DNA from: Acidobacteriota bacterium
GTDB lineage: Bacteria > Acidobacteriota > Thermoanaerobaculia > Multivoradales > JAHEKO01
Reading direction: 5' to 3'
DNA length: 64,000 nt
Assembly: GCA_030597375.1 (NCBI GenBank)
Contig: JAUVRX010000001.1
Span: 54,818 to 118,817, forward strand
Below are positions 14,968 through 54,570 of the stretch, in pieces. The notes beneath the pieces were generated by a model. The model was given only the letters and a program-made list of their open reading frames with translations, was not told the DNA's origin and did not search any database. Each line of letters starts with the position of its first letter. The first letter of the stretch is position 1. Position numbers and translations under genes: made by a program.

Positions 14968-17394
14968 GTGGCCACAGTCAAAGGGCTGGACGCCCAGGAG
15001 CTATACCGCCATTGCGACTTCGGCGATCTCCGTTTCGACACCACCGATGATCTCGGTGACCTACAAGGCCTTCTCGGTCAGCCCCGCGCTGAAGCGGCGA
15101 TCGAATTCGGCATCGGCATCGAGCATGAGGGCTACAACATCTTCGCCTTCGGGCCAACCGGTACCGGCAAACATACAGCGGTCAAGCAGTATCTCGAGGG
15201 AAAAGCTGCCACTGCGGAGATACCACCCGATCTCTGCTATGTGAACAACTTCGCAGAGCCTCACAAACCCAACATTCTTCAGCTTCCAGCCGGCCGTGGG
15301 AGCGAGCTCAAGAAAGCCATGCGCGGGCTTCTGGAAGAGGTCCGCACGGTTCTCGAGACGGCTCTGGAAAGCGAGGACTACCAGGCGCGCAAGCAGGTCC
15401 TCGAACAGCAGTTCGAGGAGCGGCAAGGCAAGACCCTGTCGGATCTCGGCGACAAGGCCGGCAAGAGGGGCCTGGCCCTGGTCCGTACGCCTGTCGGCAT
15501 CGTCTTCGCGCCGATGGGCGAAGAGGAGGTTCTCTCGCCCGAGGAGTACCAGAAGCTTCCAGACAAGAAGCGGGAGCGACTCGAGAAGGAGATCGAACGG
15601 CTCAAGGAGGAGCTTCAGAAGGTTCTTCGCCAGTTTCCGCGGTGGCAACGGCAGGCCAGCGAGGCGTTTCGCAAGCTCAACCTCGAAGTGAGTCGGTTCG
15701 CCGTCAATCCCCTCTTCGACGAGCTGCGCGAACAGTTCGAAGGGCTGGACCAGGTGCAGGCCTTCCTGGACGCGGCGGAGAGCGACATCGTGGAGAAGGC
15801 CGGTCGCCTCGGTTCCCGTGGTGAGAAAGCAGCTTCCATGGCCATGGACGAGATCTCGGGAGGGGACGACACCGAGAAACCGAGCCTGCGTCGGTATCGG
15901 GTCCATCTCATCGTGGATCATCGAGAGACCACCGGCGCTCCGGTGGTCTACGAAGACAATCCCACCTACCAGAACCTCTTCGGACGTGTCGAGCACATAC
16001 CGCAGATGGGCGCCGTGGTGACGGACTTCAATCTAATCAAGGCCGGGGCCTTGCACCGAGCCAACGGTGGGTACCTGCTGGTAGACGCTCTGAAGGTCCT
16101 GCAACAGCCCTATACCTATGAGGGTCTCAAGAGGGCCCTGCAATCGAGGAAGATCAAGATCGAGTCCCTGGGCGAGGCGATGAGCTTGATCAGCACCTAC
16201 TCGCTCGAGCCGGAGCCAGTCGACCTGGCGGTCAAGGTCGTTCTGCTGGGCAGCCCGATGGTCTACTACCTGCTGCCCAATCTGGATCCGGAGTTCGGTG
16301 AGCTGTTCAAGGTCGGCGCCGACTTCGCCGGAGTCATCGAGTGGAACGACGAAAACCAGGAGCTCTATGCCCGGCTCATCGCCAAGCTGGTGCGGGAGGA
16401 GGGTCTCCGTCCCTTCGATCGGGCAGCGGTAGCACGGGTCATCGAGCACAGCGCCCGCTCGGTCGGTGACGCCCAGAGGATGTCACTCCTCATGAGCCGC
16501 ATACTGGACCTCATGCGAGAGGCGGACCACTGGGCCGGGAATGGCGACAGACCCTCAGCGACCAGCGAAGATGTCCAGCGCGCCATCGACAATCGGGTCT
16601 TCCGAAGCGATCGCCTGCGCCAAAGAACCCAGGAGGAGATCGAGCGCCGCACCGTACTGTTGGACACCGAAGGTGAGCAGATCGGCCAGGTGAACGGGCT
16701 GTCGGTCATCCAGATGGGTGACTTCGCGTTCGGCAGGCCCAGCCGCATCACGGCCCGTGTTCGACTCGGCAAGGGCGAGGTGGTGGACATCGAGCGTGAG
16801 GTCGAGCTCTCCGGGCCGCTCCACTCCAAGGGTGTGCTGATCCTGACCGGGTTCCTGGGAGCGCGGTATGCGCCCCGCCGGCCCCTCTCTCTCTCCGCCA
16901 GCCTTGTATTCGAGCAATCCTACGGCGGTATCGACGGCGACAGCGCTTCTTCGGCCGAGCTCTACGCCCTGCTCTCCGCCATCGCCGGGGTGCCCATCCG
17001 CCAGTCTCTGGCCGTCACCGGCTCGGTCAACCAACTGGGGCAGATTCAAGCCATCGGCGGCGTCAACGAGAAGATCGAAGGCTTCTTCGACGTCTGCTCC
17101 CGCCGCCGCCTGACCGGTGACCAGGGAGTGCTGATCCCGGCTTCCAATACCCAACACCTCATGCTGCGCCAGGACGTGGTAGAGGCCGTCAGGGAGGGCA
17201 AGTTCCACATCTTTCCAGTGGAGACCGTGGACCAGGGAATCGCGTTGTTGACCGGCTGGAGCGCCGGTGAACCCGGAGAAGATGGAGGCTATCCCGAAGG
17301 CAGCCTGAACCAACGAGTCGTCGAGCGTCTCGAGCAGCTGGCGGCCGACGCGAAAGCCTTCTCCACCCCCCCGTTCATGAACAATGCGGGCTAA
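14968..17394 (+). CDS. Lon-like AAA+/S16 protease with large helical insertion (LonC-type / Lon-related ATP-dependent protease)
   Basis: ORF 14788..17394 trimmed to an in-frame GTG start (VATVKGLDAQELY; RBS agggggatgg). The first ~60 aa of the listed ORF look non-coding. Walker A (GPTGTGKHT) is followed by a ~180-aa charged coiled-coil insertion, then NGGYLLVD (Walker B region) and a C-terminal Lon S16 domain (GPLHSKGVLILTGFLGARYA...ASLVFEQSYGGIDGDSASSAELYALLSAIAGVPIRQSLAVTGSVNQLGQIQAIGGVNEKIEG). Confidence 0.8.
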   Translation: MATVKGLDAQELYRHCDFGDLRFDTTDDLGDLQGLLGQPRAEAAIEFGIGIEHEGYNIFAFGPTGTGKHTAVKQYLEGKAATAEIPPDLCYVNNFAEPHKPNILQLPAGRGSELKKAMRGLLEEVRTVLETALESEDYQARKQVLEQQFEERQGKTLSDLGDKAGKRGLALVRTPVGIVFAPMGEEEVLSPEEYQKLPDKKRERLEKEIERLKEELQKVLRQFPRWQRQASEAFRKLNLEVSRFAVNPLFDELREQFEGLDQVQAFLDAAESDIVEKAGRLGSRGEKAASMAMDEISGGDDTEKPSLRRYRVHLIVDHRETTGAPVVYEDNPTYQNLFGRVEHIPQMGAVVTDFNLIKAGALHRANGGYLLVDALKVLQQPYTYEGLKRALQSRKIKIESLGEAMSLISTYSLEPEPVDLAVKVVLLGSPMVYYLLPNLDPEFGELFKVGADFAGVIEWNDENQELYARLIAKLVREEGLRPFDRAAVARVIEHSARSVGDAQRMSLLMSRILDLMREADHWAGNGDRPSATSEDVQRAIDNRVFRSDRLRQRTQEEIERRTVLLDTEGEQIGQVNGLSVIQMGDFAFGRPSRITARVRLGKGEVVDIEREVELSGPLHSKGVLILTGFLGARYAPRRPLSLSASLVFEQSYGGIDGDSASSAELYALLSAIAGVPIRQSLAVTGSVNQLGQIQAIGGVNEKIEGFFDVCSRRRLTGDQGVLIPASNTQHLMLRQDVVEAVREGKFHIFPVETVDQGIALLTGWSAGEPGEDGGYPEGSLNQRVVERLEQLAADAKAFSTPPFMNNAG

Positions 17395-23255: not shown

Positions 23256-24179
23256 ATGGCTGGTTCCGACCCTTCACCGTCCGAAGCGGGGACGGTCGTC
23301 GCTGCTACCGATCTCTCTGAGACCGCGAATGCTGGAGTTCGCTGGGCCGTTCAGGTCGCCAGACAGAGAGGCTCCGCGCTCCACCTGATCCACGGTCTCA
23401 ATCTGGCCGGCTGGACCCTGGACTACAGCGAGCTCCAGGCCAAGATCCCGGTGCAGTTGGAGGATGCCGCCAGAGAGCATCTCGATCGAATCGCCCGAGA
23501 GACGAGGCAACAGGGGGTAGCCGCCACCTGGGAAGTGAGAATCGGCCAACCCTCCGAGATCATCGTCGGGGAGGCCCAGCGGTTGAACGCCGAGTTGCTG
23601 GTTCTCGGCGCCAGAGGGCATCGACCCCTCGATCATGTCCTTCTCGGGAGCACGGCCGAGCGGGTCGTACAGAGGGCGACCTGCGCCGTGCTCACGGTTC
23701 ATCTTGAAGATCCCCCGCCTACGGGCAGGGTCCGCCGTATCCTCTCGGCGACGGATTTCTCGGAGGAAGCGGAGTGGGCTCTCCGGGCTTCGCTCGAGCT
23801 CTTCACTGAAGCCGACTCGGTTCCTCCAACGGTCGTGCTGCTGCACGCCTACCACGTGCCCTACGAGCTCAGCATGGATAGTATCTACGGCCCAGCAGCA
23901 CCCGACGCATCGGTCTGGAAGGCTGTCGCCAGGGAGGTGGAGAGTCGCCTGGAAGGACGTGTACAGGCCCTCGAGGCCGACCTGGGAATCGACATCGTGC
24001 CGTTGAGCCGAAGCGGATTCCCACCTCAAGTGATTGTCCAGCAGGCCGTCGAGTCGGCCGTCGATCTGATCGTTTTGGGAACTCACGGTCGTACCGGCCT
24101 GGCCCACGTACTGCTGGGAAGCACCGCGGAGCGAGTCATACAGATGGCTCAGTGCCCCGTGCTCACGGTCCGTAGATAG
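23256..24179 (+). CDS. tandem universal stress protein (2 x UspA domain)
   Basis: ORF 23172..24179 trimmed to MAGSDPS. Both halves end in the UspA signature (VLGARGHRPLDHVLLGSTAERVVQRATCAVLTV and VLGTHGRTGLAHVLLGSTAERVIQMAQCPVLTV). Confidence 0.8.
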   Translation: MAGSDPSPSEAGTVVAATDLSETANAGVRWAVQVARQRGSALHLIHGLNLAGWTLDYSELQAKIPVQLEDAAREHLDRIARETRQQGVAATWEVRIGQPSEIIVGEAQRLNAELLVLGARGHRPLDHVLLGSTAERVVQRATCAVLTVHLEDPPPTGRVRRILSATDFSEEAEWALRASLELFTEADSVPPTVVLLHAYHVPYELSMDSIYGPAAPDASVWKAVAREVESRLEGRVQALEADLGIDIVPLSRSGFPPQVIVQQAVESAVDLIVLGTHGRTGLAHVLLGSTAERVIQMAQCPVLTVRR

Positions 24180-24220
24180 ATGGACGAATCGAAGCGTTTC
24201 GACCTCGGAAGGAGAGAATC

Positions 24221-24691
24221 ATGCCGCTACAGAAGCTGCGAGAGTTTCTCGACCAGAACAGTGTCAAGTACGTCAGTGTCAGCCATTCACCCGCCTACAC
24301 CGCCCAGGAGATCGCTGCCTCGGCCCACATACCGGGTCAGGAGCTGGCCAAGACGGTCATGGTGAAGCTCGACGGCGAGATGGCCATGGCCGTGCTGCCT
24401 GCCTCCTTCAAGGTGGATCTCGAGCAGCTCCGCTCTGCCGCCGGCGCGACCGAAGTCGCTCTGGCCACGGAAGATGAGTTCAGGGGTCTTTTCCCCGGCT
24501 GCGAGCCTGGAGCGATGCCACCTTTCGGCAATCTCTGGAACATGTCGGTCTTCGCTTGCGAGACCCTGGCGGAGGACGAGGAGATCGCCTTCAACGCCGG
24601 GTCCCACACGGAGCTGGTGAAACTCGCGTTCGTCGACTTCGCCAGGCTGGTGAACCCCAAGGTGACTCGCTTCTCCACCACGGAATCCTAG
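24221..24691 (+). CDS. YbaK/EbsC (ProX)-type aminoacyl-tRNA deacylase domain protein
   Basis: 156 aa with RBS ggaaggagag. The fold is YbaK-like (KTVMVKLDGEMAMAVLP...). Its stop codon lies inside the left arm of the repeat element. Confidence 0.65.
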   Translation: MPLQKLREFLDQNSVKYVSVSHSPAYTAQEIAASAHIPGQELAKTVMVKLDGEMAMAVLPASFKVDLEQLRSAAGATEVALATEDEFRGLFPGCEPGAMPPFGNLWNMSVFACETLAEDEEIAFNAGSHTELVKLAFVDFARLVNPKVTRFSTTES

Positions 24692-24855
24692 GAGTCTGCG
24701 CGGCAGAAAGCTACCCTACTGTGAAAGCGGTGTCGGCGGCCCAGATTCGACCGGGTCCTCGTTACGTAGCACCACTACGCGCCTCGGATCCGGTCGAATC
24801 TGGACTCACCGCTCCACTTTCTCGCGACGGGCGTTTCTACCGCGCAGACTCCTAG
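24688..24855. repeat. 168-bp palindromic MITE/REP-like element (family A full copy): 67-bp arm + 35-bp loop + diverged inverted arm, with terminal IR ctaggagtctgcgcgg
   Basis: Read directly. The outer 15-bp inverted repeat is taggagtctgcgcgg / ccgcgcagactccta. The inner inverted repeat is cccagattcgaccgg / ccggtcgaatctgg. The left arm matches the 48352..48418 copy 67/67 (reverse complement) and the 49882..49948 copy 66/67. Confidence 0.6.
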
Positions 24856-24977
24856 CCCGCATAGCTTGACATCGTCATGTACGAGTCAAGCTCCGTGGGG
24901 CGGTGCCGACACCCCTCGCGACGGTTCCCCAGAGACCTGGCGTCAGCGGACCGGTGGCCGGCTAGAATAGCCGTCCG

Positions 24978-25565
24978 ATGACCAGAGATCCCGATCCCCT
25001 GGCCGAGGTCCGCCGCCTGCTGTCCCGGGCACAGATTGAAGAGAGTCACGACGCGACGGTAGCCACCCTGGCCACTGCAGACGCCGCCGGTCGGCCCTCG
25101 GCTCGAATCGTCCTCGTCAAGAACATCGACGCGGCTGGAATCACGTTCTACACGAATCTGGAGAGCCGCAAGGCACTCGATCTGAAGGTCAACCCCCAGG
25201 CCGCGTTGTGCATCTACTGGCCGACCCTCCACAAACAGGTACGGATCGAGGGGAAGGTTCAGGCGGTCACCGAAACGGAAGCCGAAGCGTACTTCGCTTC
25301 GCGACCCCGCGGCAGTCAGATCGGTGCCTGGGCATCCAAGCAGAGTGAGCCTCTGGCTTCACGCCGGGAACTGGTCGCACGATACCTGAAGATCCAGGCC
25401 CGCTTCGCCGGCCAGCCGGTGCACCGACCGCCCTTCTGGGGTGGTTATCGACTCATCGCCGACCGCATCGAAATCTGGCACAACCAGCTGTACCGACTTC
25501 ACGACCGATTCTTGTACGAGCGTAAGGCAGAGCGCGGCTGGACGGCACAGCGACTGTACCCGTGA
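24978..25565 (+). CDS. pdxH: pyridoxamine 5'-phosphate oxidase
   Basis: 195 aa with the PNPOx fold and the C-terminal signature IEIWHNQLYRLHDRFLY (cf. IEFWQ...RLHDR). Confidence 0.85.
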   Translation: MTRDPDPLAEVRRLLSRAQIEESHDATVATLATADAAGRPSARIVLVKNIDAAGITFYTNLESRKALDLKVNPQAALCIYWPTLHKQVRIEGKVQAVTETEAEAYFASRPRGSQIGAWASKQSEPLASRRELVARYLKIQARFAGQPVHRPPFWGGYRLIADRIEIWHNQLYRLHDRFLYERKAERGWTAQRLYP

Positions 25566-28154: not shown

Positions 28155-29261
28155 ATGACACCGATTCCGATCGCCTTCTTCGTCTCCTCACACGGATTCG
28201 GACATGCCGCACGCAGCGCCGCCGTCATGGAAGCGCTCCACGATCAGAGCCCGGAGGTCAGCTTCTCGATCTTCACTGGCGTCCCCAGGTGGTTCTTCGA
28301 GGATTCGATGAACGCACCCTTCGAGTACCTGAGATGCCGCACCGATGTCGGGCTCGTCCAGACGACCCCCATGGAGGAAGACCTCGCAGCGACGATCGAT
28401 GAGCTCTCGAGCTTTCTTCCCCTTTGTCGTCAGCTGATCACGGGTGCGGCAGACGAGGTTCGAAGCAGAAAATGCCGCCTCATCGTCAGCGATATCTCTC
28501 CCCTCGGCATTGCCGTGGCGGCCGAGCTCGGTCTGCCATGCGCCCTGGTCGAGAACTTCACCTGGGACTGGATCTATCGTGCCTATCTCGAAGTCGAACC
28601 GCGGTTCGATTCCTTCATCGCCGAGATGCGTCGCCTCTACTCGGCGGTACACCTGAGAATTCAGGCCGAGCCCTTCTGCGCAGCGGTGCCGGGTTCGGCC
28701 CAGGTTGCACCGATCAGTCGATCGGTTCGGGAGCCGCCAACCGTGATTCGTCAGCGCTTGCAGCTGGCTGGCGACTCACCGTTCGTGCTGGTAACCATGG
28801 GAGGTTTCCCGGCCACCTACCGTTTCCTCGAGCGCCTTCATCGGTATCCCGAGATCACCTTCGTGATCCCGGGCGCCAGTGACGCCATGCACCGGGATCA
28901 GAATCTGATCCTGTTACCCCATCGCACGACGTTTCAGCACGCCGACCTGGTGGCCGCTGCCGACATGGTGGTTGGCAAGCTCGGCTACAGCACCCTGGCG
29001 GAAGTTTTCCAGGCCGCGACACCCTACCTGTTTTTGCAGCGGCGCCGTTTCCCCGAATCGCCGGCCCTCGCCCGATTCGCCGAGCAGCGCCTGGTGAGTG
29101 GAGAGATCACCGAGACCGAGCTCGAAGCGGCCGACTGGCCGAGCCGACTCCCAGCCATGGAGACCGATCGCCGATCGCCCGCCACAGAGCCGTCCGGCTC
29201 GCTTCAAACGGCCGATCTTCTGCTGGATCTGCTTCAGGGTCGCTGCCCGCATTATTCATGA
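28155..29261 (+). CDS. glycosyltransferase (GT1/GT28-like UDP-glycosyltransferase fold)
   Basis: 368 aa. The N-terminal SSHGFGHAAR motif is typical of MGT/GtfA-like glycosyltransferases. The C-terminal half is a nucleotide-sugar binding Rossmann domain. Confidence 0.65.
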   Translation: MTPIPIAFFVSSHGFGHAARSAAVMEALHDQSPEVSFSIFTGVPRWFFEDSMNAPFEYLRCRTDVGLVQTTPMEEDLAATIDELSSFLPLCRQLITGAADEVRSRKCRLIVSDISPLGIAVAAELGLPCALVENFTWDWIYRAYLEVEPRFDSFIAEMRRLYSAVHLRIQAEPFCAAVPGSAQVAPISRSVREPPTVIRQRLQLAGDSPFVLVTMGGFPATYRFLERLHRYPEITFVIPGASDAMHRDQNLILLPHRTTFQHADLVAAADMVVGKLGYSTLAEVFQAATPYLFLQRRRFPESPALARFAEQRLVSGEITETELEAADWPSRLPAMETDRRSPATEPSGSLQTADLLLDLLQGRCPHYS

Positions 29262-29428
29262 CCCCGCGTGCAAATTGTGGAAAGCGTCCGTCAGATCTGG
29301 TCACCCGCAGGAAGGAGCACTGGAGGCAACCTTGCGGGTTGTTGAGGAGCGACGAGCGAGGTCGGCCTGAGGTGGCGGGCGATCTCGACCAGATGCCGTG
29401 GGGCTCATGAATAATGGGGGCTAGGAGG
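29244..29428. repeat. inverted pair of family B core motifs flanking the GT / repeat-protein convergent intergenic region
   Basis: gcccgcattattcatga at 29244..29262 supplies the GT stop codon. tcatgaataatgggggctagg at 29404..29424 is its near reverse complement about 140 bp away, and is preceded by ggcgggcgatctcgaccagatgccgtgggg. Confidence 0.4.
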
Positions 29429-40628: not shown

Positions 40629-40700
40629 CCCGCATTATTCATGCGGGCCAAGGGCGTAGGGGTGGACGCGACCGGGCGTTCCTTCGGCCGGTCTTTGGGG
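40629..40700. repeat. mosaic short repeat copy in the rnd/leuS intergenic region (hairpin cccgcat-tattc-atgcggg + agggcgtagggg + ccttcggccggtctttgggg)
   Basis: Read directly; the modules recur at 17380, 61046 and 61061. Confidence 0.4.
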
Positions 40701-48351: not shown

Positions 48352-48418
48352 CCGGTCGAATCTGGGCCGCCGACACCGCTTTCACAGTAGGGTAGCTTTC
48401 TGCCGCGCAGACTCCTAG
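48352..48418. repeat. family A repeat, 67-bp arm copy, reverse orientation, upstream of agcS
   Basis: Exact reverse complement (67/67) of the left arm of the 24688..24855 element. Confidence 0.55.
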
Positions 48419-48455: not shown

Positions 48456-49805
48456 ATGAGTCAGTGGATCCAGAGCGCCAGCGATTTCCTGTGGGGCTTG
48501 CCGATGCTGGGCCTCGTCCTCGGAGTGGGGATCTACCTCATGGTCCGCCTCCGTGCCGTGCAGATTCGGCAGTTCGGCCAGGCCCTCCGCGACCTTTTTC
48601 AACCTCCAATCACAGACGCCTCCTCGGGTGACATCTCGCCCTTCGGTGCCCTGATGACTGCCGTGGGCGGCATCGTGGGAAACGGCAACATCGCTGGTGT
48701 TGCCACCGCCATCACCTCGGGCGGGCCTGGGGCTCTCTTCTGGATGTGGGTCAGCGGCCTGGTGGGCATGGGAACCATGTTTGCCGAGTCGGTCCTGGGG
48801 ATCGTCTACCGGCGGAAAGGCGATGACGGTCTCTTCCTGGGTGGTCCCATGTACTACCTCGAGAGTGCCCTCGGCTGGCCCGCGATCGCGTCCTTCTTCG
48901 CCATCGGCATGGCCTTGAAGACGCTGCTGGCGACGACCACCGTGCAGAGTAACTCCATGTCCCTGGTGGCGGCCAGTGAGCTGGGCTGGAGCCCGATGTT
49001 CACCTGCTCTCTGGCGGCTTTGGTGACGGGTGCCGCTGTGGTCGGTGGAGTTCGCTCCATCGCTCGGGTCTCCAAGATCCTCTCCCCGCTCATGGGCCTC
49101 CTCTATCTGGCTGGAGCTGCGGGCGTGCTATGGGCATTCCGCTCGGCACTGGCGGCCTCGTTGGCTCTGGTGATGGAGCATGCCTTCACGCCGATGGCTG
49201 CCGGCGGTGGATTCCTCGGTGCCAGCGTCCGCCAGGCGTTTCGATTCGGTCTCGCCCGCGGCGTCTACTCCAACGAGGCCGGTACCGGCTCGGTACCGAT
49301 CGCACACGCCTCGGCCCGAACCGACGATCCGGTCGCCCAGGGGAGGATCGCCATGCTCGGGGTGTTTCTCGACACCATGGTGGTCTCGAGCGCTACCGGC
49401 CTCGTTCTGCTGGTCACCGGAGCCTGGCGCTCCGGGTTGGAATCGACGACCCTCACGGCGCAGGCATTCTCCGAGGGACTGGGACCCATGGGTGGCACCG
49501 TTGTCCTGGCAGCCTCACTGCTGTTCGGCCTGTCGACACTCATCACCTGGGCCTTCTACGGCGAGCAATGTGCGGTCTATCTCTTCGGCCCCAAGGCCAG
49601 GGGACCCTATCGTCTGCTCTACTGTGTCGCTATCCTGGGCGGCTCCCTGGCAGGCGCCCAGGCTATCTGGGCCTGGGCTGACCTGCTCAACGGCATCATG
49701 GCCATCCCGAATCTCGTCGCATTGGCTCTGCTCGCCGGCCCGGTAGCACGGCGACTGGCCGGGGCCTCGGGAGACAGCCAGCTCGATTCCGCCACCTCTG
49801 CCTGA
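48456..49805 (+). CDS. agcS: sodium:alanine (amino acid) symporter family (AGCS) transporter
   Basis: 449 aa and polytopic. AGCS-family blocks are present: GPGALFWMWVSGLVGMGTMFAE and YSNEAGTGSVPIAHASA. Confidence 0.85.
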   Translation: MSQWIQSASDFLWGLPMLGLVLGVGIYLMVRLRAVQIRQFGQALRDLFQPPITDASSGDISPFGALMTAVGGIVGNGNIAGVATAITSGGPGALFWMWVSGLVGMGTMFAESVLGIVYRRKGDDGLFLGGPMYYLESALGWPAIASFFAIGMALKTLLATTTVQSNSMSLVAASELGWSPMFTCSLAALVTGAAVVGGVRSIARVSKILSPLMGLLYLAGAAGVLWAFRSALAASLALVMEHAFTPMAAGGGFLGASVRQAFRFGLARGVYSNEAGTGSVPIAHASARTDDPVAQGRIAMLGVFLDTMVVSSATGLVLLVTGAWRSGLESTTLTAQAFSEGLGPMGGTVVLAASLLFGLSTLITWAFYGEQCAVYLFGPKARGPYRLLYCVAILGGSLAGAQAIWAWADLLNGIMAIPNLVALALLAGPVARRLAGASGDSQLDSATSA

Positions 49806-49960
49806 GGCGGCGGGCGATCTCCACAGTGGACTGTGGGCATGACAGTCCACTAGATGCCGTGAGGATCATGAACGATGCGGGCTAGGAGTCTGCGCGGCAG
49901 AAAGCTCCCCTACTGTGAAAGCGGTGTCGGCGGCCCAGATTCGACCGTGCAGACTCCTAG
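49803..49960. repeat. composite repeat downstream of agcS: family B motif (ggcgggcgatctc...agatgccgtgaggatcatgaacgatgcgggctagg) interrupted by a 27-nt perfect hairpin, then a family A short copy (49882..49960) with 12-bp terminal IR
   Basis: Read directly. The segment 49803..49880 matches 29381..29425 except for an inserted palindrome agtggactgt-gggcatg-acagtccact (49825..49851). The segment 49882..49948 matches the family A arm 66/67 and is closed by gcagactcctag. Confidence 0.55.
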
Positions 49961-49998
49961 AGTATCCTTGGGTCCGATCAGAAGGGAGTAGAAGAACC

Positions 49999-51081
49999 AT
50001 GCGAGCCGACAGCCAGCTGTTCCTGCAGGAGTTCCTCCAACTTTTTGGGGACAACCCTTATGTTCACGCCGCGGTACTCGTGGTCGTCTCTCTGGTGGCC
50101 GCCAAGATGGTGGACTGGGTCGTGATTCGGTTCGTGGCGCGTTGGGCGAAGAAGAGCCGCACCGACATCGATGATCGTCTGGTCGCCAATCTTCACAAGC
50201 CCCTCTTTCTGACCCTCCTACTTTTCGGCCTCTGGCTCGCTCTGGCCCAGCTCGAGCTGCCCGAAGGCGTCGCCCTCTTCTCGACGAGATCCCTGAAGAC
50301 CATCGTCCTGCTTCTCTGGGGGGGCTTCGCGCTCAGGAGCTGCTCCATTCTTCTCGGCCTGCTCAGCCACATGGAACGGCGCTTCGCCGTCGTTCAACCC
50401 AGAACCGTCCCCCTGTTCGACAATGTTACGAAGATCCTGGTGGTGGGCGGTGCAATCTACTTCCTGTTCCTGATCTGGGGCGTCGACGTGGGAGCCTGGC
50501 TGGCGGGGGCCGGCATCGTCGGCATCGCCGTCGGCTTCGCGGCGAAGGACAGCCTGGCCAATCTTTTCGCGGGCCTCTTCATCGTTGCCGACGCCCCCTA
50601 CAAGATCGGTGACTTCATCGTTCTCGATACCGGCGAACGGGGGCGCGTCTCACAGATAGGCCTGCGCAGCACCCGCCTGCTGACACGGGACGACATCGAG
50701 ATCACGGTGCCCAACGCTGTGATCGCCAACGCCAAGATCACAAATGAGAGCGGCGGTCCATCCGAAAAGGAGCGAGTACGGGTTCCGGTGGGAGTCGCCT
50801 ATGGCAGCGATATCGATCGGGTCCGAGAGGTACTCCTGGAGGTAGCTCACTCCAACGACTCGATCGACACCAATCCAGAGGCACGAGTGCGCTTCCGATC
50901 GTTTGGCGATGCGGGTCGCAAGTTCGAGCTCCTGGGCTGGATCCACGAGCCGGTTCTCAGGGGCCAAGTGATCGACGCCCTGAACACCGAGATCTATAAG
51001 CGCTTCGCGGCAGAGGGCATCGAGATTCCCTATCCAAAGAGGGATGTCTACCTGCACCAGGCACCGGATTCGGATCGCTGA
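49999..51081 (+). CDS. mechanosensitive ion channel (MscS family)
   Basis: ORF 49915..51081 trimmed to MRADSQLFLQ (RBS aagggag). The first 28 codons of the listed ORF translate the repeat element. Three TM segments are followed by the MscS pore and beta-domain (ANLFAGLFIVADAPYKIGDFIVL...GRVSQIGLRSTRLLTRDD). Confidence 0.8.
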   Translation: MRADSQLFLQEFLQLFGDNPYVHAAVLVVVSLVAAKMVDWVVIRFVARWAKKSRTDIDDRLVANLHKPLFLTLLLFGLWLALAQLELPEGVALFSTRSLKTIVLLLWGGFALRSCSILLGLLSHMERRFAVVQPRTVPLFDNVTKILVVGGAIYFLFLIWGVDVGAWLAGAGIVGIAVGFAAKDSLANLFAGLFIVADAPYKIGDFIVLDTGERGRVSQIGLRSTRLLTRDDIEITVPNAVIANAKITNESGGPSEKERVRVPVGVAYGSDIDRVREVLLEVAHSNDSIDTNPEARVRFRSFGDAGRKFELLGWIHEPVLRGQVIDALNTEIYKRFAAEGIEIPYPKRDVYLHQAPDSDR

Positions 51082-51159
51082 GCCTGGACCGAAGCGATCC
51101 TGCAGCCTGTCGTTTTCGAAGAAGGATTCCAGAGCACCGACTTCCGAGGGAATCTTGCC

Positions 51160-51840
51160 ATGACACTACGGCTCGAGCCGCTGAGTGAGTATCGCCAGTA
51201 CCCAATCGACAAGATGCGTCAGAGAACGACCGATTTCCTGGCTGAGATGCGTCGGAGGCGGTCCGTCCGTCACTTCTCTTCGCGACCGGTACCACGCGAT
51301 ATCGTCGAGGATTGCATCCGCGTCGCCATGACGGCGCCGAGCGGCGCCAATCGTCAGCCCTGGCACTTTACGCTGGTTGGGGATCCAGAGGTCAAGCACC
51401 GGATTCGGGTCGCCGCCGAAGAGGAGGAGCGCGGCTTCTACGACGGCCGGGCCCCGGAGGAGTGGCTCGAGGCCCTGGCTCCACTGGGCACCGATGCGCA
51501 CAAGCCCTTCCTCGAGACCGCTCCCTATCTCGTCGTCATCTTCGCCCAGCTCCACGGAGAGGAGACCGATGGGGCCAAGATGAAGCACTACTATGTGAAC
51601 GAGTCGGTGGGAATCGCCACCGGAATGTTGATCACGGCCCTGCACCACGTCGGCCCTGCGAGCCTGACGCACACCCCCGCACCCATGCGCTTCCTGAGCG
51701 AGATTCTGGGGCGTCCGGCCCACGAGAAGCCATACCTGATTCTCGTCGTCGGATACCCCGAGAGCGATACCAAGGTGCCGGTTCTTTCCAAGAAGAGCTT
51801 CGAGCAATCCTGCGAGATCATCGACCTCGACATCGGGTGA
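51160..51840 (+). CDS. nitroreductase-family flavoprotein (iodotyrosine deiodinase / NADH oxidase-like)
   Basis: 226 aa; the motif [38 protein letters not shown] is the canonical nitroreductase N-terminal motif. Confidence 0.8.
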
Positions 51841-52124
51841 CCAGCAGGAGTCCAGCAAATCCTTGAGTTTTTCGCCGTGGATCGTGTTAGAATCTCGCCA
51901 TCTCGAAGGATCAGGGGTACGCCCGACGAGGACTTTCGATTCACTCAACGGCAGTACGCCAACTCGAGGGTCGATTGGCCCTCCTGAACCAAAGAGGTCG
52001 ATGGACCAAGAAAAGCAGTCACTCATACGCCGTCGACAGGAAGCTGTCGGCAAATCGTTGACCTGGGGGGAGAACAGGGTCCGATAGTGACCCCTTCCCG
52101 ATCAAGAAACCTTGAGGAGTGGAA

Positions 52125-52418
52125 ATGAACAAGACGGAAATGGCTGAGAAGCTCGCCAAGAACAGTGACCTGTCGCAGGCGAAGGCTCTGGAGATTGTCT
52201 CCATGATCTTCGACACCAAGCCTGGAACTGGCATCATCGCCATCGAGCTGGATGCCGGTGGCAAGGTCCAGATCCCCGGCTTCGGCACCTTTGGCTCGAA
52301 GAGTCGCGCCGCCCGGCAGGGCCGCAACCCCGCCACCGGCCAGACCATCATGATCGCCGCCAAGAAGTACCCGTTCTTCAAGCCCGGTAAGGGCCTCAAG
52401 GACCGGGTCGCCGACTGA
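52125..52418 (+). CDS. hup: HU/IHF-family nucleoid-associated DNA-binding protein
   Basis: 97 aa starting MNKTEMAEKLAK (RBS gaggag, 5-nt spacer). The beta-arm signature is GFGTFGSKSRAARQGRNPATGQTI. Confidence 0.9.
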   Translation: MNKTEMAEKLAKNSDLSQAKALEIVSMIFDTKPGTGIIAIELDAGGKVQIPGFGTFGSKSRAARQGRNPATGQTIMIAAKKYPFFKPGKGLKDRVAD

Positions 52419-52463
52419 CGGGTCCAGGCTCTCAACGGCATTTTTCAGAAGCAAATCATGAGG

Positions 52464-52500
52464 CCCCGTCGCGGACTTCTCCGCGGCGGGGTTTGTTCTG
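52464..52500 (+). terminator. Rho-independent terminator after hup
   Basis: The hairpin ccccgtcgcgg-acttct-ccgcggcgggg is followed by tttgttctg. Confidence 0.6.
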
Positions 52501-52578
52501 TCCGATGCCGGAACCTTGTAGCCAAGTTCACTCCAAGGAAAGTTGTTACACTCCCTCAGCCAACAGGCGATCCTGAAG

Positions 52579-54570
52579 ATGAGTGAAGTCGGCAAGACCA
52601 TCCTGCACTACCGCATTTTGAAGAAGCTGGGCGAAGGCGGTATGGGGACCGTCTATCTCGCCGAGGACACCAAGCTCAACCGCAAGGTCGCCGTCAAGTT
52701 CCTACCCGTGGAGATGGCTTCCGACCCCACTCGCTTGAAACGATTCGAACGGGAAGCGAAAACGGTCGCCAGCCTCAACCACCCCAACATCGTCACCCTG
52801 TTTGCCGTCGAGGAACACGACGGAGTCCCATTCCTGGTCATGGAATTGGTAGAGGGCGAGCCTCTCGGTGAGGTCATTGCCGAAGGGGGAATGGAAGTCC
52901 AGCGGTTCTTCCAGATCGCCATCCCCATGACCGATGCCCTGGCCGCCGCTCATGCCAGCGGCATCACCCACCGTGACCTAAAGCCCGGCAACATCATGCT
53001 GACGGCCGATGGCCGGGTCAAAATCCTCGACTTCGGACTGGCGAAGCTCCTCGAGGAGCCCGAACAGGATGCTACCGCCACTCTGTCCACCCAGGCATTG
53101 ACGCGAGAAGGCAGCGTCCTGGGCACCGTCCCCTACATGGCTCCCGAGCAGCTCAAGGGAACCGGACCCGATCCTCGATCGGACATCTTCTCCCTGGGAA
53201 TCGTTCTCTACCAGATGATCAGTGGGAGGCGACCCTTCAAGGGCGCCACCTCCGCCGAGGTCATCAGCTCGATCCTGCGGGACAGTCCACCGCCGGTGAC
53301 CGATCTCAAGATGGATCTACCTCCCCACCTCGGGAGAATCGTCAAACGCTGCCTCGAGAAGGACGTCTCACGACGTTATCAGTCGTCTGCCGACCTTCGA
53401 AATGAGCTCGAGGAGCTCAAGCGGGAGATCGAGACCGGCCAGATGTTCGAGACCAAGGCACGGCCGGCAGTCCTGCCCGAGCCGAGGTCACCCAGGTCCA
53501 GAACGAAGCCACTGCTGGCCATCCTGGCTGTCGTCGTCATCGTAGCCGCGGCCGCCCTTTTCCTTCTACGAGCCCAACACCCAGCCTCGACTCCAGAACC
53601 TCAGAGTGCGGCTCCTCCCCCTGCCGTCACGGAGACCGTCGCTGTGCTCCCTTTCAAGAGCCTGGGGGGAGAGGGTGGTGACGATCTGACGAACGGTCTG
53701 GCCGAGGAAATCACCAGCAAACTCACCGATCTCGAAGATCTCCAGGTGGTCTCCACTGCGACTGCGGCGCGCCATGCCCGCGCCGAGACCGGTACCCAGT
53801 TGATTGGTGAGCGGCTCGGAGCAACCTACCTAGTCCTGGGTACCGTCCAGTGGGACGACAGCGACACGCGCAATCCGCAGGTCCGGGTGACGCCCCAACT
53901 CGTTCGGGTCGCCGACGATATCCAGATCTGGTCCGAGAGTTTCGACCGGTCAGCGGCCCAGCCTCTCGAGGTCCAGTCCGAGATTGCCGGAATCGTCGTG
54001 CGGCAGGTGGGGGTGTCGCTTCTGGGTTGGGAGGGAGAGGAGGTGTTGCAGGCCCTCCTGGAGGACCAGGAGGTCGACCTCCCGATTCCAGAATCAGAGC
54101 CGACAAGATCCGCCAGCGCAACAGGTGGCGTCGGCGCTGCAAGCTCTCAGCCACCAGCAGGCTCGGAAGCCGGCGATGCCTCCAGTCGACAACAGGTCAT
54201 CGTCACCGAGACCGAACTGCAGAGTCAGCCATCTGCCGGGGATCCGGCTGTCGGACCGGTAACTCTGCACATTCAATTCGCCAGCCGAATGCCCGAAGGC
54301 GTACTGACCCTTTATGCCGACGAGAAGCAGATTCTCAAGGAGCAGTTCCGCTACCAGAAGAAGTCCCGCCTCCTGAGGCCAAAGCGCTCTCTGGGCGGCT
54401 TCGACACCACCCGTGAGATCTCGTCATCCACCCGCACCCTGAGGATCTACCTCCTGGTGGAAGGAGAATCCAAGCTCACTACCGTCACAACCGACCTTCT
54501 GGCGGCAGAAGAGCGGACGCTGACCATCGAACTGTTTCGCAAGGGGACGATCGAGGCCAGCCTCGAATAG
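52579..54570 (+). CDS. transmembrane Ser/Thr protein kinase with extracytoplasmic TolB-N-like sensor region
   Basis: ORF 52543..54570 trimmed to ATG (MSEVGKTILHYRI). Hanks kinase motifs are present: GEGGMGTVY, VAVK, HRDLKPGNIM, DFGLA, APE. A TM segment (LLAILAVVVIVAAAALFLL) precedes a C-terminal ~300-aa extracellular domain. Confidence 0.85.
   Translation: MSEVGKTILHYRILKKLGEGGMGTVYLAEDTKLNRKVAVKFLPVEMASDPTRLKRFEREAKTVASLNHPNIVTLFAVEEHDGVPFLVMELVEGEPLGEVIAEGGMEVQRFFQIAIPMTDALAAAHASGITHRDLKPGNIMLTADGRVKILDFGLAKLLEEPEQDATATLSTQALTREGSVLGTVPYMAPEQLKGTGPDPRSDIFSLGIVLYQMISGRRPFKGATSAEVISSILRDSPPPVTDLKMDLPPHLGRIVKRCLEKDVSRRYQSSADLRNELEELKREIETGQMFETKARPAVLPEPRSPRSRTKPLLAILAVVVIVAAAALFLLRAQHPASTPEPQSAAPPPAVTETVAVLPFKSLGGEGGDDLTNGLAEEITSKLTDLEDLQVVSTATAARHARAETGTQLIGERLGATYLVLGTVQWDDSDTRNPQVRVTPQLVRVADDIQIWSESFDRSAAQPLEVQSEIAGIVVRQVGVSLLGWEGEEVLQALLEDQEVDLPIPESEPTRSASATGGVGAASSQPPAGSEAGDASSRQQVIVTETELQSQPSAGDPAVGPVTLHIQFASRMPEGVLTLYADEKQILKEQFRYQKKSRLLRPKRSLGGFDTTREISSSTRTLRIYLLVEGESKLTTVTTDLLAAEERTLTIELFRKGTIEASLE

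Follow-up and report, generated by a model that had tools for sequence, protein, structure and literature searches.

A palindromic repeat of 168 bp stands directly behind the stop codon of a YbaK-like gene in the stretch of DNA examined here (the window, i.e. the whole 64-kb stretch that was analysed), and this locus raises the question of whether the repeat represents a mobile element, a structured RNA, an extragenic palindrome or terminator serving the gene, or the product of a local duplication. The palindrome occupies positions 24688-24855, as described in an earlier reading of the letters alone (the sequence-only reading), and forms a long imperfect hairpin that reads CTAGGAGTCTGCGCGGCAGAAA ... 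TTTCTACCGCGCAGACTCCTAG. These two strings constitute a terminal inverted repeat of 22 nt (95%), perfect over its outer 16 nt, within which lies the 15-mer previously noted as a perfect terminal repeat. The inner inverted repeat (CCAGATTCGACCGG / CCGGTCGAATCTGG) is likewise perfect over the 14 bp that had been claimed, although the string originally given for it has 13 letters. Positions 24723-24769 and 24775-24821, which include the inner repeat CCAGATTCGACCGG, are 70% complementary. The predicted RNA fold of the element is one long hairpin of -101.6 kcal/mol, compared with -62.9 +/- 4.3 for shuffled sequences (z = -8.9), which agrees with the expectation that a highly structured RNA would be made upon transcription.

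The 162-bp element within this palindrome (Table 1) is very probably a MITE that lacks a gene of its own and carries the ~20-nt termini of the ISKpn6 group of the IS1182 family. According to the mechanism that we propose, a DDE transposase supplied by a full-length relative elsewhere in the genome would bind the two termini and move the element in trans, and integration would take place at the rare tetranucleotide CTAG, most probably with duplication of its central TA. At this locus the insertion occupies the CTAG that the last sense codon of the YbaK-like gene makes together with its TAG stop.

Table 1. Coordinates of the element, its host gene and its derivatives within the window
Feature	Position	Strand	Basis and remarks
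YbaK-like aminoacyl-tRNA deacylase gene	24221..24691	+	tRNA_edit PF04073, E = 4e-26; TAG at 24689-24691
Left TA copy (favoured duplication)	24689..24690	.	within regenerated CTAG 24688-24691; supplies the TA of the YbaK-like TAG stop, completed by the initial G of the element
MITE proper, 162 bp	24691..24852	+	runs from GGAGTCTGCGCGG to CCGCGCAGACTCC; filled site 164 bp longer than empty site (L121/L122)
Left terminal inverted repeat GGAGTCTGCGCGGCAGAAA	24691..24709	+	(near-)identical to the ends of full-length IS1182-family elements and ISKpn6; columns of alignment A1 invariant
Interior, long imperfect hairpin	24710..24833	+	asymmetric motifs kept in the family: left CCTACTGTGAAAGCGG, right CCACTTTCTCGCGACGG, apex CTCGTTACGTAGCACCACTACGCGCCTCGG
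Right terminal inverted repeat, reverse complement GGAGTCTGCGCGGTAGAAA	24834..24852	-	repeat analysis, comparison with IS ends, alignment
Right TA copy (favoured duplication)	24853..24854	.	within regenerated CTAG 24852-24855
Copy 2, solo 67-nt left arm	48352..48418	-	67/67 to copy 1; between divergent peptidase M1 and Na:Ala symporter genes
Copy 3, 79-bp internally deleted mini-element	49882..49960	+	arm plus last 12 nt of right terminus; CTAG on both sides; covariance model R1, 41.5 bits

Insertion at the ybaK locus and the presumed partner insertion sequences

The ybaK and symporter loci were compared with those of related strains through close homologues of the window proteins. The nearest YbaK homologues, 98% and 96% identical, are located on syntenic contigs with the order usp - ybaK - pdxH - acyl-CoA synthetase, and the spacer between ybaK and pdxH in these relatives measures 122 or 114 bp, compared with 286 bp in the window. 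The empty site reads GGAATCCTAGCCCGCAT in the relatives (L121-L124), while the filled site of the window reads GGAATC[CTAGGAGTC...GACTC]CTAGCCCGCAT; when aligned, the relative shows ...ACGGAATCCTAGCCCGCATAGCT... and the window ...ACGGAATC[CTAGGAGTC ... GACTC]CTAGCCCGCATAGCT.... The window site contains exactly 164 extra bp, with CTAG present once in the empty and twice in the filled site. The TAG stop of the YbaK-like gene is thus native and, after insertion, is rebuilt from the presumably duplicated TA and the first base of the element, a G. The coding sequence is unaltered by the insertion, and homologues of the same 156-aa length are present in strains that lack the element, the consequence at the locus being that a very stable hairpin now lies within the 286-bp spacer preceding pdxH.

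The flank CTAGCCCGCAT, shared between copies, raised the possibility that the element extends beyond 168 bp, which was rejected, as CCCGCAT at copy 1 is native and present at the empty site. At copy 3 and at a metagenome copy (L132), part of this flank belongs to another repeat, being the terminus of a second family that is unrelated to the present one (family A) and beside which the latter has inserted. A separate native hairpin, AGCTTGAC-N14-GTCAAGCT, is located at 24856-24899, just 3' of the insertion; it has no T-run and is also found at the empty sites of the relatives, and therefore lies outside the element.

The ~20-nt termini (GGAGTCTGCGCGGYAGAAA) match those of IS1182-family insertion sequences (IS) of 1.53-1.6 kb, including ISKpn6 of Tn4401/blaKPC plasmids, the IS located downstream of blaKPC in Tn4401. 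An exact scan for the terminal 21-mer TAGGAGTCTGCGCGGYAGAAA, with one genome per species, identified at least 120 loci across many genomes, often at contig ends, which is the signature of a multi-copy repeat. Among the matches listed, the hosts include Acidobacteriota (Thermoanaerobaculia, Vicinamibacteria and others), Betaproteobacteria (Massilia, Janthinobacterium, Rubrivivax) and Gammaproteobacteria (Granulosicoccaceae, Marinobacter, Tamilnaduibacter). When mismatches were tolerated, two inverted termini were found ~165 bp apart at most loci and 1531-1597 bp apart at nine (L001, L023, L034, L068, L087, L091, L092, L093, L101). The long versions, of ~1.5 kb, each hold one ORF of 441-445 aa, and these ORFs match NF033551, the NCBIfam equivalog for the IS1182 family transposase (381.8 and 345.9 bits; cutoff 270), as well as DUF772 (PF05598), DDE_Tnp_1 (PF01609) and PF13751. 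Elements of the IS1182 family, as catalogued in ISfinder, are about 1.3-1.95 kb in size; the full-length partner thus corresponds to this family in its single DDE transposase scoring above the cutoff, its size and its inverted repeats. Compared with plasmid proteins, the Janthinobacterium transposase is 64% identical to that of ISKpn6, and the ISKpn6 copy beside blaKPC-3 on pKPC_Kp02 is bounded by ggC-CTAGGAGCCTGCGCGGCAGAAG... on one side and ...CTGCCGCGCAGACTCCTAG-cc on the other, the distance between GGAG and CTCC being 1540 bp.

The MITE and the full-length IS have the first ~20 nt in common, while their interiors are unrelated, and the left terminus of the window element is predicted from this match to be a transposase-binding end. 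Across the loci L001, L023, L034, L068, L087, L091-L093, L101 and L129, the transposases share only 50-64% identity with one another (50-58% among the full-length versions in the retrieved loci), yet their termini hardly vary, which represents an unusually strong conservation of IS ends across phyla. The 64-kb window contains no homologue of the cognate transposase (tblastn, best E-value 3.8), in agreement with the sequence-only reading, and the partner would therefore have to lie elsewhere in the genome; the nearest full-length element with these termini was seen in another Thermoanaerobaculia MAG (L001). The closest named homologues, 88-90% identical, carry a Thermoanaerobaculia annotation, and the source organism probably belongs to this group. 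The non-autonomous MITE, one of the classes that had been proposed, is borne out both by these termini, which are those of an autonomous IS family, and by the clean empty site in a near-identical strain. Other non-autonomous elements with the same termini and different interiors have lengths of 154 bp, ~277 bp (GC ~0.68-0.69), 295 bp and 319-323 bp, and occur in Acidobacteriota MAGs (L009, L018, L021, L029, L041, L047, L055, L083, L096, L106, L108) and in Massilia (L008). The differing interiors and lengths under the same termini suggest that several MITE lineages use the same transposase ends.

Target preference and position at stop codons

The target preference was derived from 209 distinct termini anchored on internal bases. 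The flanking positions are C at -3 (88%), T at -2 (94%) and A at -1 (96%), whereas the element itself starts with G, G, A, G at +1 to +4 in 98-99% of the termini (98% for the first G); beyond CTAG, the flanks show a weak G-rich preference. A palindromic target cannot in itself decide between duplication of TA and of CTAG. However, a 4-bp CTAG duplication predicts that positions -3 and +1 are equally conserved, and the observed inequality (88% and 98%), together with single cases such as L010 and L004, in which one end is flanked by CTA and the opposite end by ATA while GGAG is intact on both sides, makes the duplication of TA most likely. The favoured reading of these alignments is therefore a target N-TA-N with a strong preference for C-TA-G, of which the TA would be duplicated. 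Since G is the first and C the last base of the element, insertion restores CTAG on either side.

CTAG is rare in the window, where it occurs 26 times compared with 220 occurrences expected from base composition (an approximately eightfold under-representation) and 84 by Markov estimation. The junctions of the three copies account for five of these 26, which implies that ~3 of 23 original sites are occupied. Among other tetranucleotides of the window, TTAA (5) and TATA (11) are also rare, and GATC (574) and TCGA (744) are over-represented.

Of 40 family members, whose gene context was taken from a crude gene call, 13 abut the TAG stop of an ORF, four with their left and nine with their right end. 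At the same loci, 370 unoccupied CTAG sites are distributed among gene interiors (44%), intergenic positions (42%) and stops (14%). Occupied sites avoid gene interiors, and when only the non-genic free sites are considered, 51 of 206 (25%) lie at stops, about alike to the 33% of occupied sites (13/40). The position directly behind a stop codon, correctly noted in the sequence-only reading, is consequently explained by target choice, since CTAG contains the TAG stop, in combination with selection against gene disruption; it provides no evidence for a terminator role.

Two elements were also observed head to head on a single CTAG (...GCAGACTCCTAGGAGTCTGC...) at L036:7338-7377, L114:7801-7840 and L117:617-656, and in two of these cases (L036 and L117) the MITE lies beside a full-length IS, as indicated by the transposase N-terminus in tblastn. 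Each insertion regenerates CTAG on its two sides, so that older copies provide targets for new ones.

The conserved interior and the possibility of a functional RNA or terminator

The retrieved loci contain 52 elements of 150-215 bp, with a mode of 165 bp, and the window element (24691..24852) aligns end to end with the ~165-bp elements of other genomes at 70-80%. The interior, as well as the termini, is conserved between Acidobacteriota and Beta- and Gammaproteobacteria. In an alignment of 16 diverse members the termini are invariant and the interior holds fixed asymmetric motifs, namely CTACTGCGAAAG on the left, CTTTCTCGCTACG on the right and TTTTCGTTACGTAG-N5-CTATGCGCCTCAAA at the apex. The RNAalifold consensus is one hairpin of 55 pairs, 31 of which show compensatory changes; paired cells amount to 91.6%, compared with 35-46% in partner-slid controls, and the covariation score of 0.364 exceeds both the slid controls (<=0.095) and all 500 shuffles, none of which reached it. 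With a covariance model, members reach 125-169 bits when read in one direction and 65-101 when read in the opposite one (162.4 bits on the + strand and 85.9 on the - strand for model R1 on the window element), an advantage which indicates that the element has polarity. Its + orientation was defined by the conserved interior motifs, with the CTACTGYGAAAG arm coming first.

This interior, although conserved across phyla, has no counterpart in any full-length IS examined. The most probable reason for the retention of the compensated hairpin is a DNA-level role in the transposition or upkeep of the element itself. In the variable helices, G-U cells show no excess over A-C cells (34 versus 29, or 19 versus 29 when one fixed column is left out), and no orientation bias relative to the neighbouring genes was found among the 40 family members; these two observations imply that pairing is kept alike on both strands, a pattern for which a requirement at the level of DNA, or homogenisation of the two arms, is a better explanation than a strand-specific RNA. 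Moreover, the subterminal motifs GCGAAAG / GCGAGAAAG resemble the inner terminus GCGGCAGAAAG and could, judging from this resemblance, be candidate secondary transposase-binding sites. It is conceivable, although rather unlikely, that the ~165-bp element has a function of its own and is not just a passive deletion derivative, the candidates being recruitment or titration of ISKpn6-type transposases by a structured RNA or DNA hairpin, or a 3'-end module placed at stops by the CTAG rule and exploited by the host.

A related proposal is that the family originated as a MITE but has been co-opted as a functional RNA whose hairpin would be transcribed together with, or beside, host genes and could, for instance, stabilise 3' ends, block RNases, act as an sRNA or regulate the transposase. 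Such a role would explain why the interior has been conserved from Acidobacteriota to Gammaproteobacteria. The 31 compensated pairs of 55 and the covariation above the slid controls are in line with this proposal, as are the polarity conferred by the asymmetric loops (125-169 versus 65-101 bits), the very stable predicted fold and the location directly behind a stop codon, which makes read-through transcription likely. Nevertheless, related sequences can surpass shuffle controls without structural selection, the elements that abut stops do so with either end (four left, nine right) and show no preference for the direction of the neighbouring genes, and G-U cells that do not outnumber A-C cells are what is expected of DNA. 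Moreover, no match to Rfam 15 was obtained at gathering thresholds in the whole window, and a permissive E-value search of 24600-24950 gave only far-sub-threshold eukaryotic and viral miRNA hairpin models, i.e. generic hairpin matches. Similarly, no promoter-like or terminator-like site was predicted in 24150-25050, and no T-tract follows the stem. Nothing that was found points to a host regulatory RNA role, and we regard such co-option as improbable.

The sequence-only reading had offered a REP/BIME-like regulatory or terminator element as the other likely class, and the palindromic, intergenic and repeated nature of the sequence, as well as its position immediately behind a stop codon, would be compatible with an extragenic palindrome or intrinsic terminator that serves the YbaK-like gene and is not a transposon. 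This assignment could not be upheld and is very improbable. REP/BIME sequences consist of clustered units of ~20-40 nt associated with RAYT (Y1/HUH) proteins, whereas the window element has 162 bp, far above the length of a REP unit, occurs as single, unclustered copies and has the ends of a DDE insertion sequence; strains with 96-98% identical YbaK lack it, with precise junctions. An intrinsic terminator would comprise a GC-rich stem followed by a T-run and oriented with the upstream gene, but neither a T-tract after the stem nor an orientation bias is seen.

Dispersed copies and relation to known systems

A MITE would be expected in dispersed, polymorphic copies, and the 67-nt arm of the element recurs twice within the window, a match obtained with none of 100 shuffles. 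The arm of copy 2 is identical over all 67 positions, as had been claimed for 48352, but is located on the minus strand, while that of copy 3 (49882-49948) matches at 65 of 67 positions and not at the 66 reported. Compared with relatives (L125/L126/L128), copy 2 lacks the other half of the element and ~40 bp of the ancestral spacer; since spacer has been replaced beside it, the site does not represent a simple insertion, and one deletion appears to have taken half the element together with some flank. For copy 3, an orthologous metagenome contig (L130; 99% identical over 3958 bp to window 49038-52995) carries the same mini-element with the junction GACCGCGCAG, where TTCGACCG is joined to CGCAGACTCC by a deletion at a microhomology, ACCG being present both where the arm ends and within the right terminus, and window copy 3 differs from this junction by one further C-to-T change. 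Copies 2 and 3 go back to separate insertions, each followed by a deletion that removed part of the palindrome. A clean empty site was not found for either in the relatives compared, of which the 97% relative (L125) differs in sequence at both places and the 88% relatives contain spacers that are short and unrelated; the two copies therefore provide no evidence on the junctions. Mini-derivatives of 35-79 bp are also frequent in other genomes, as expected of unstable long palindromes. A composite transposon around the symporter gene was considered and rejected, as the termini of copies 2 and 3 face the gene and not away from it.

The dispersal extends beyond the window, as a metagenome scan with a subfamily-specific 24-mer recovered four contigs from one project (PVMS01), of which L130 is one, and full-length copies 98.8-98.9% identical to copy 1 are present at three unrelated loci (L131, L132, L133) with CTAG on both sides. 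The near-identical subfamily thus occupies at least six insertion loci, three in the window and three in the metagenome, and its near-identical dispersed copies, together with the presence/absence polymorphism, indicate recent activity. The recent mobility suggested by the sequence-only reading is accordingly substantiated by ~99% identical copies at other loci, by the empty site in a near-identical strain and by the occurrence of the family at at least 120 loci, and the arm is not confined to the three window loci, a confinement which that reading had regarded as an argument against a dispersed mobile element. A blastn search of the element against the plasmid collection gave no match. The features of a MITE that can be read from sequence are hence found together: small size with no transposase, terminal repeats matching those of an IS, a target-site duplication with single-target empty sites, and dispersed polymorphic copies. 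Local segmental duplication, in place of transposition, is hardly credible as the origin of the three window copies, for although copies 2 and 3 lie 1.5 kb apart at sites with no clean empty counterparts, the flanks of the three copies are unrelated save for the neighbouring second repeat family, near-identical copies exist at three other loci, every copy is bounded by CTAG and copy 1 has an exact empty site.

The second repeat family (family B) is an unrelated, MITE-like repeat of ~175 bp with the terminal inverted repeat CCCGCATTATTCATGA / TCATGAATAATGGGGG. It is represented in the window by a complete copy at 29246-29420 and by solo or partial termini at 17375-17390(-), 40629-40644(+) and 49797-49881; a relative has a complete copy 3' of the symporter gene (L125:1553-1727), where the window keeps the right ~60 nt. 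Both family-A copy 3 and the metagenome copy L132 are located in a CTAG directly beside a family-B terminus. The family-B remnant 3' of the symporter gene additionally contains a 27-nt hairpin with a perfect 10-bp stem (AGTGGACTGT gggcatg ACAGTCCACT) at 49825-49851, for which neither L125 nor the equivalent part of family B at 29362-29420 has a counterpart.

The locus is a well-explained mobile element and not a new kind of system, a conspicuous genomic repeat being accounted for, without anything new, by a MITE moved by a well-known IS family. The clinically familiar termini of ISKpn6 are common, almost unchanged, to elements of environmental Acidobacteriota, Beta- and Gammaproteobacteria, and these elements are accompanied by a MITE whose structured interior is conserved. 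The regeneration of a rare CTAG target, combined with selection against genic insertions, places many copies exactly at TAG stops while leaving the protein unaltered. For annotation, it is relevant that such elements break assemblies and can pass for ncRNAs or terminators.

In the literature searched, no description was found of a MITE with ISKpn6-type ends or of the size of the ISKpn6 duplication, and the terminus string GGAGTCTGCGCGG returned an unrelated match only. Among known systems, ISKpn6 and related IS1182 elements have the same terminal repeat, GGAG(T/C)CTGCGCGGCAGA, as the window element, with CTAG at both junctions in both; the window element differs in its 162-bp length, the lack of a transposase, an unrelated interior and a presumed dependence on transposase supplied in trans. 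The IS630 elements, which are of the Tc1-mariner type, insert at CTAG and duplicate TA, and the window family resembles them in its CTAG preference and apparent TA duplication, whereas the transposase of its partner belongs to IS1182 (IS5-related DDE_Tnp_1). The Correia elements of Neisseria and the ERIC/IRU elements of enterobacteria are imperfect palindromes of ~100-170 bp, often located just 3' of genes and co-transcribed with them, with a TA duplication in the case of Correia, sequence conservation over many copies of Correia and ERIC, and effects on RNA processing or promoters that have been demonstrated experimentally. They are similar to the window family in size and palindromic structure, but have no sequence relationship to it and are confined to one genus or family, while the window family, known here from sequence, spans several phyla. 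Another member of the IS1182 family, ISPsy36, has been reported to target the 4-bp palindrome GGCC (PMC8027508). Previously catalogued MITEs of this family include the ISMac2-derived elements of 160 and 169 bp in the archaeon Methanosarcina acetivorans (PMC3852290), for which no cross-phylum conserved interior has been described and which differ from the window element in host domain, termini and direct repeats (4 and 0 bp), yet are like it in IS family, size class, multi-copy state and the possession of terminal inverted repeats.
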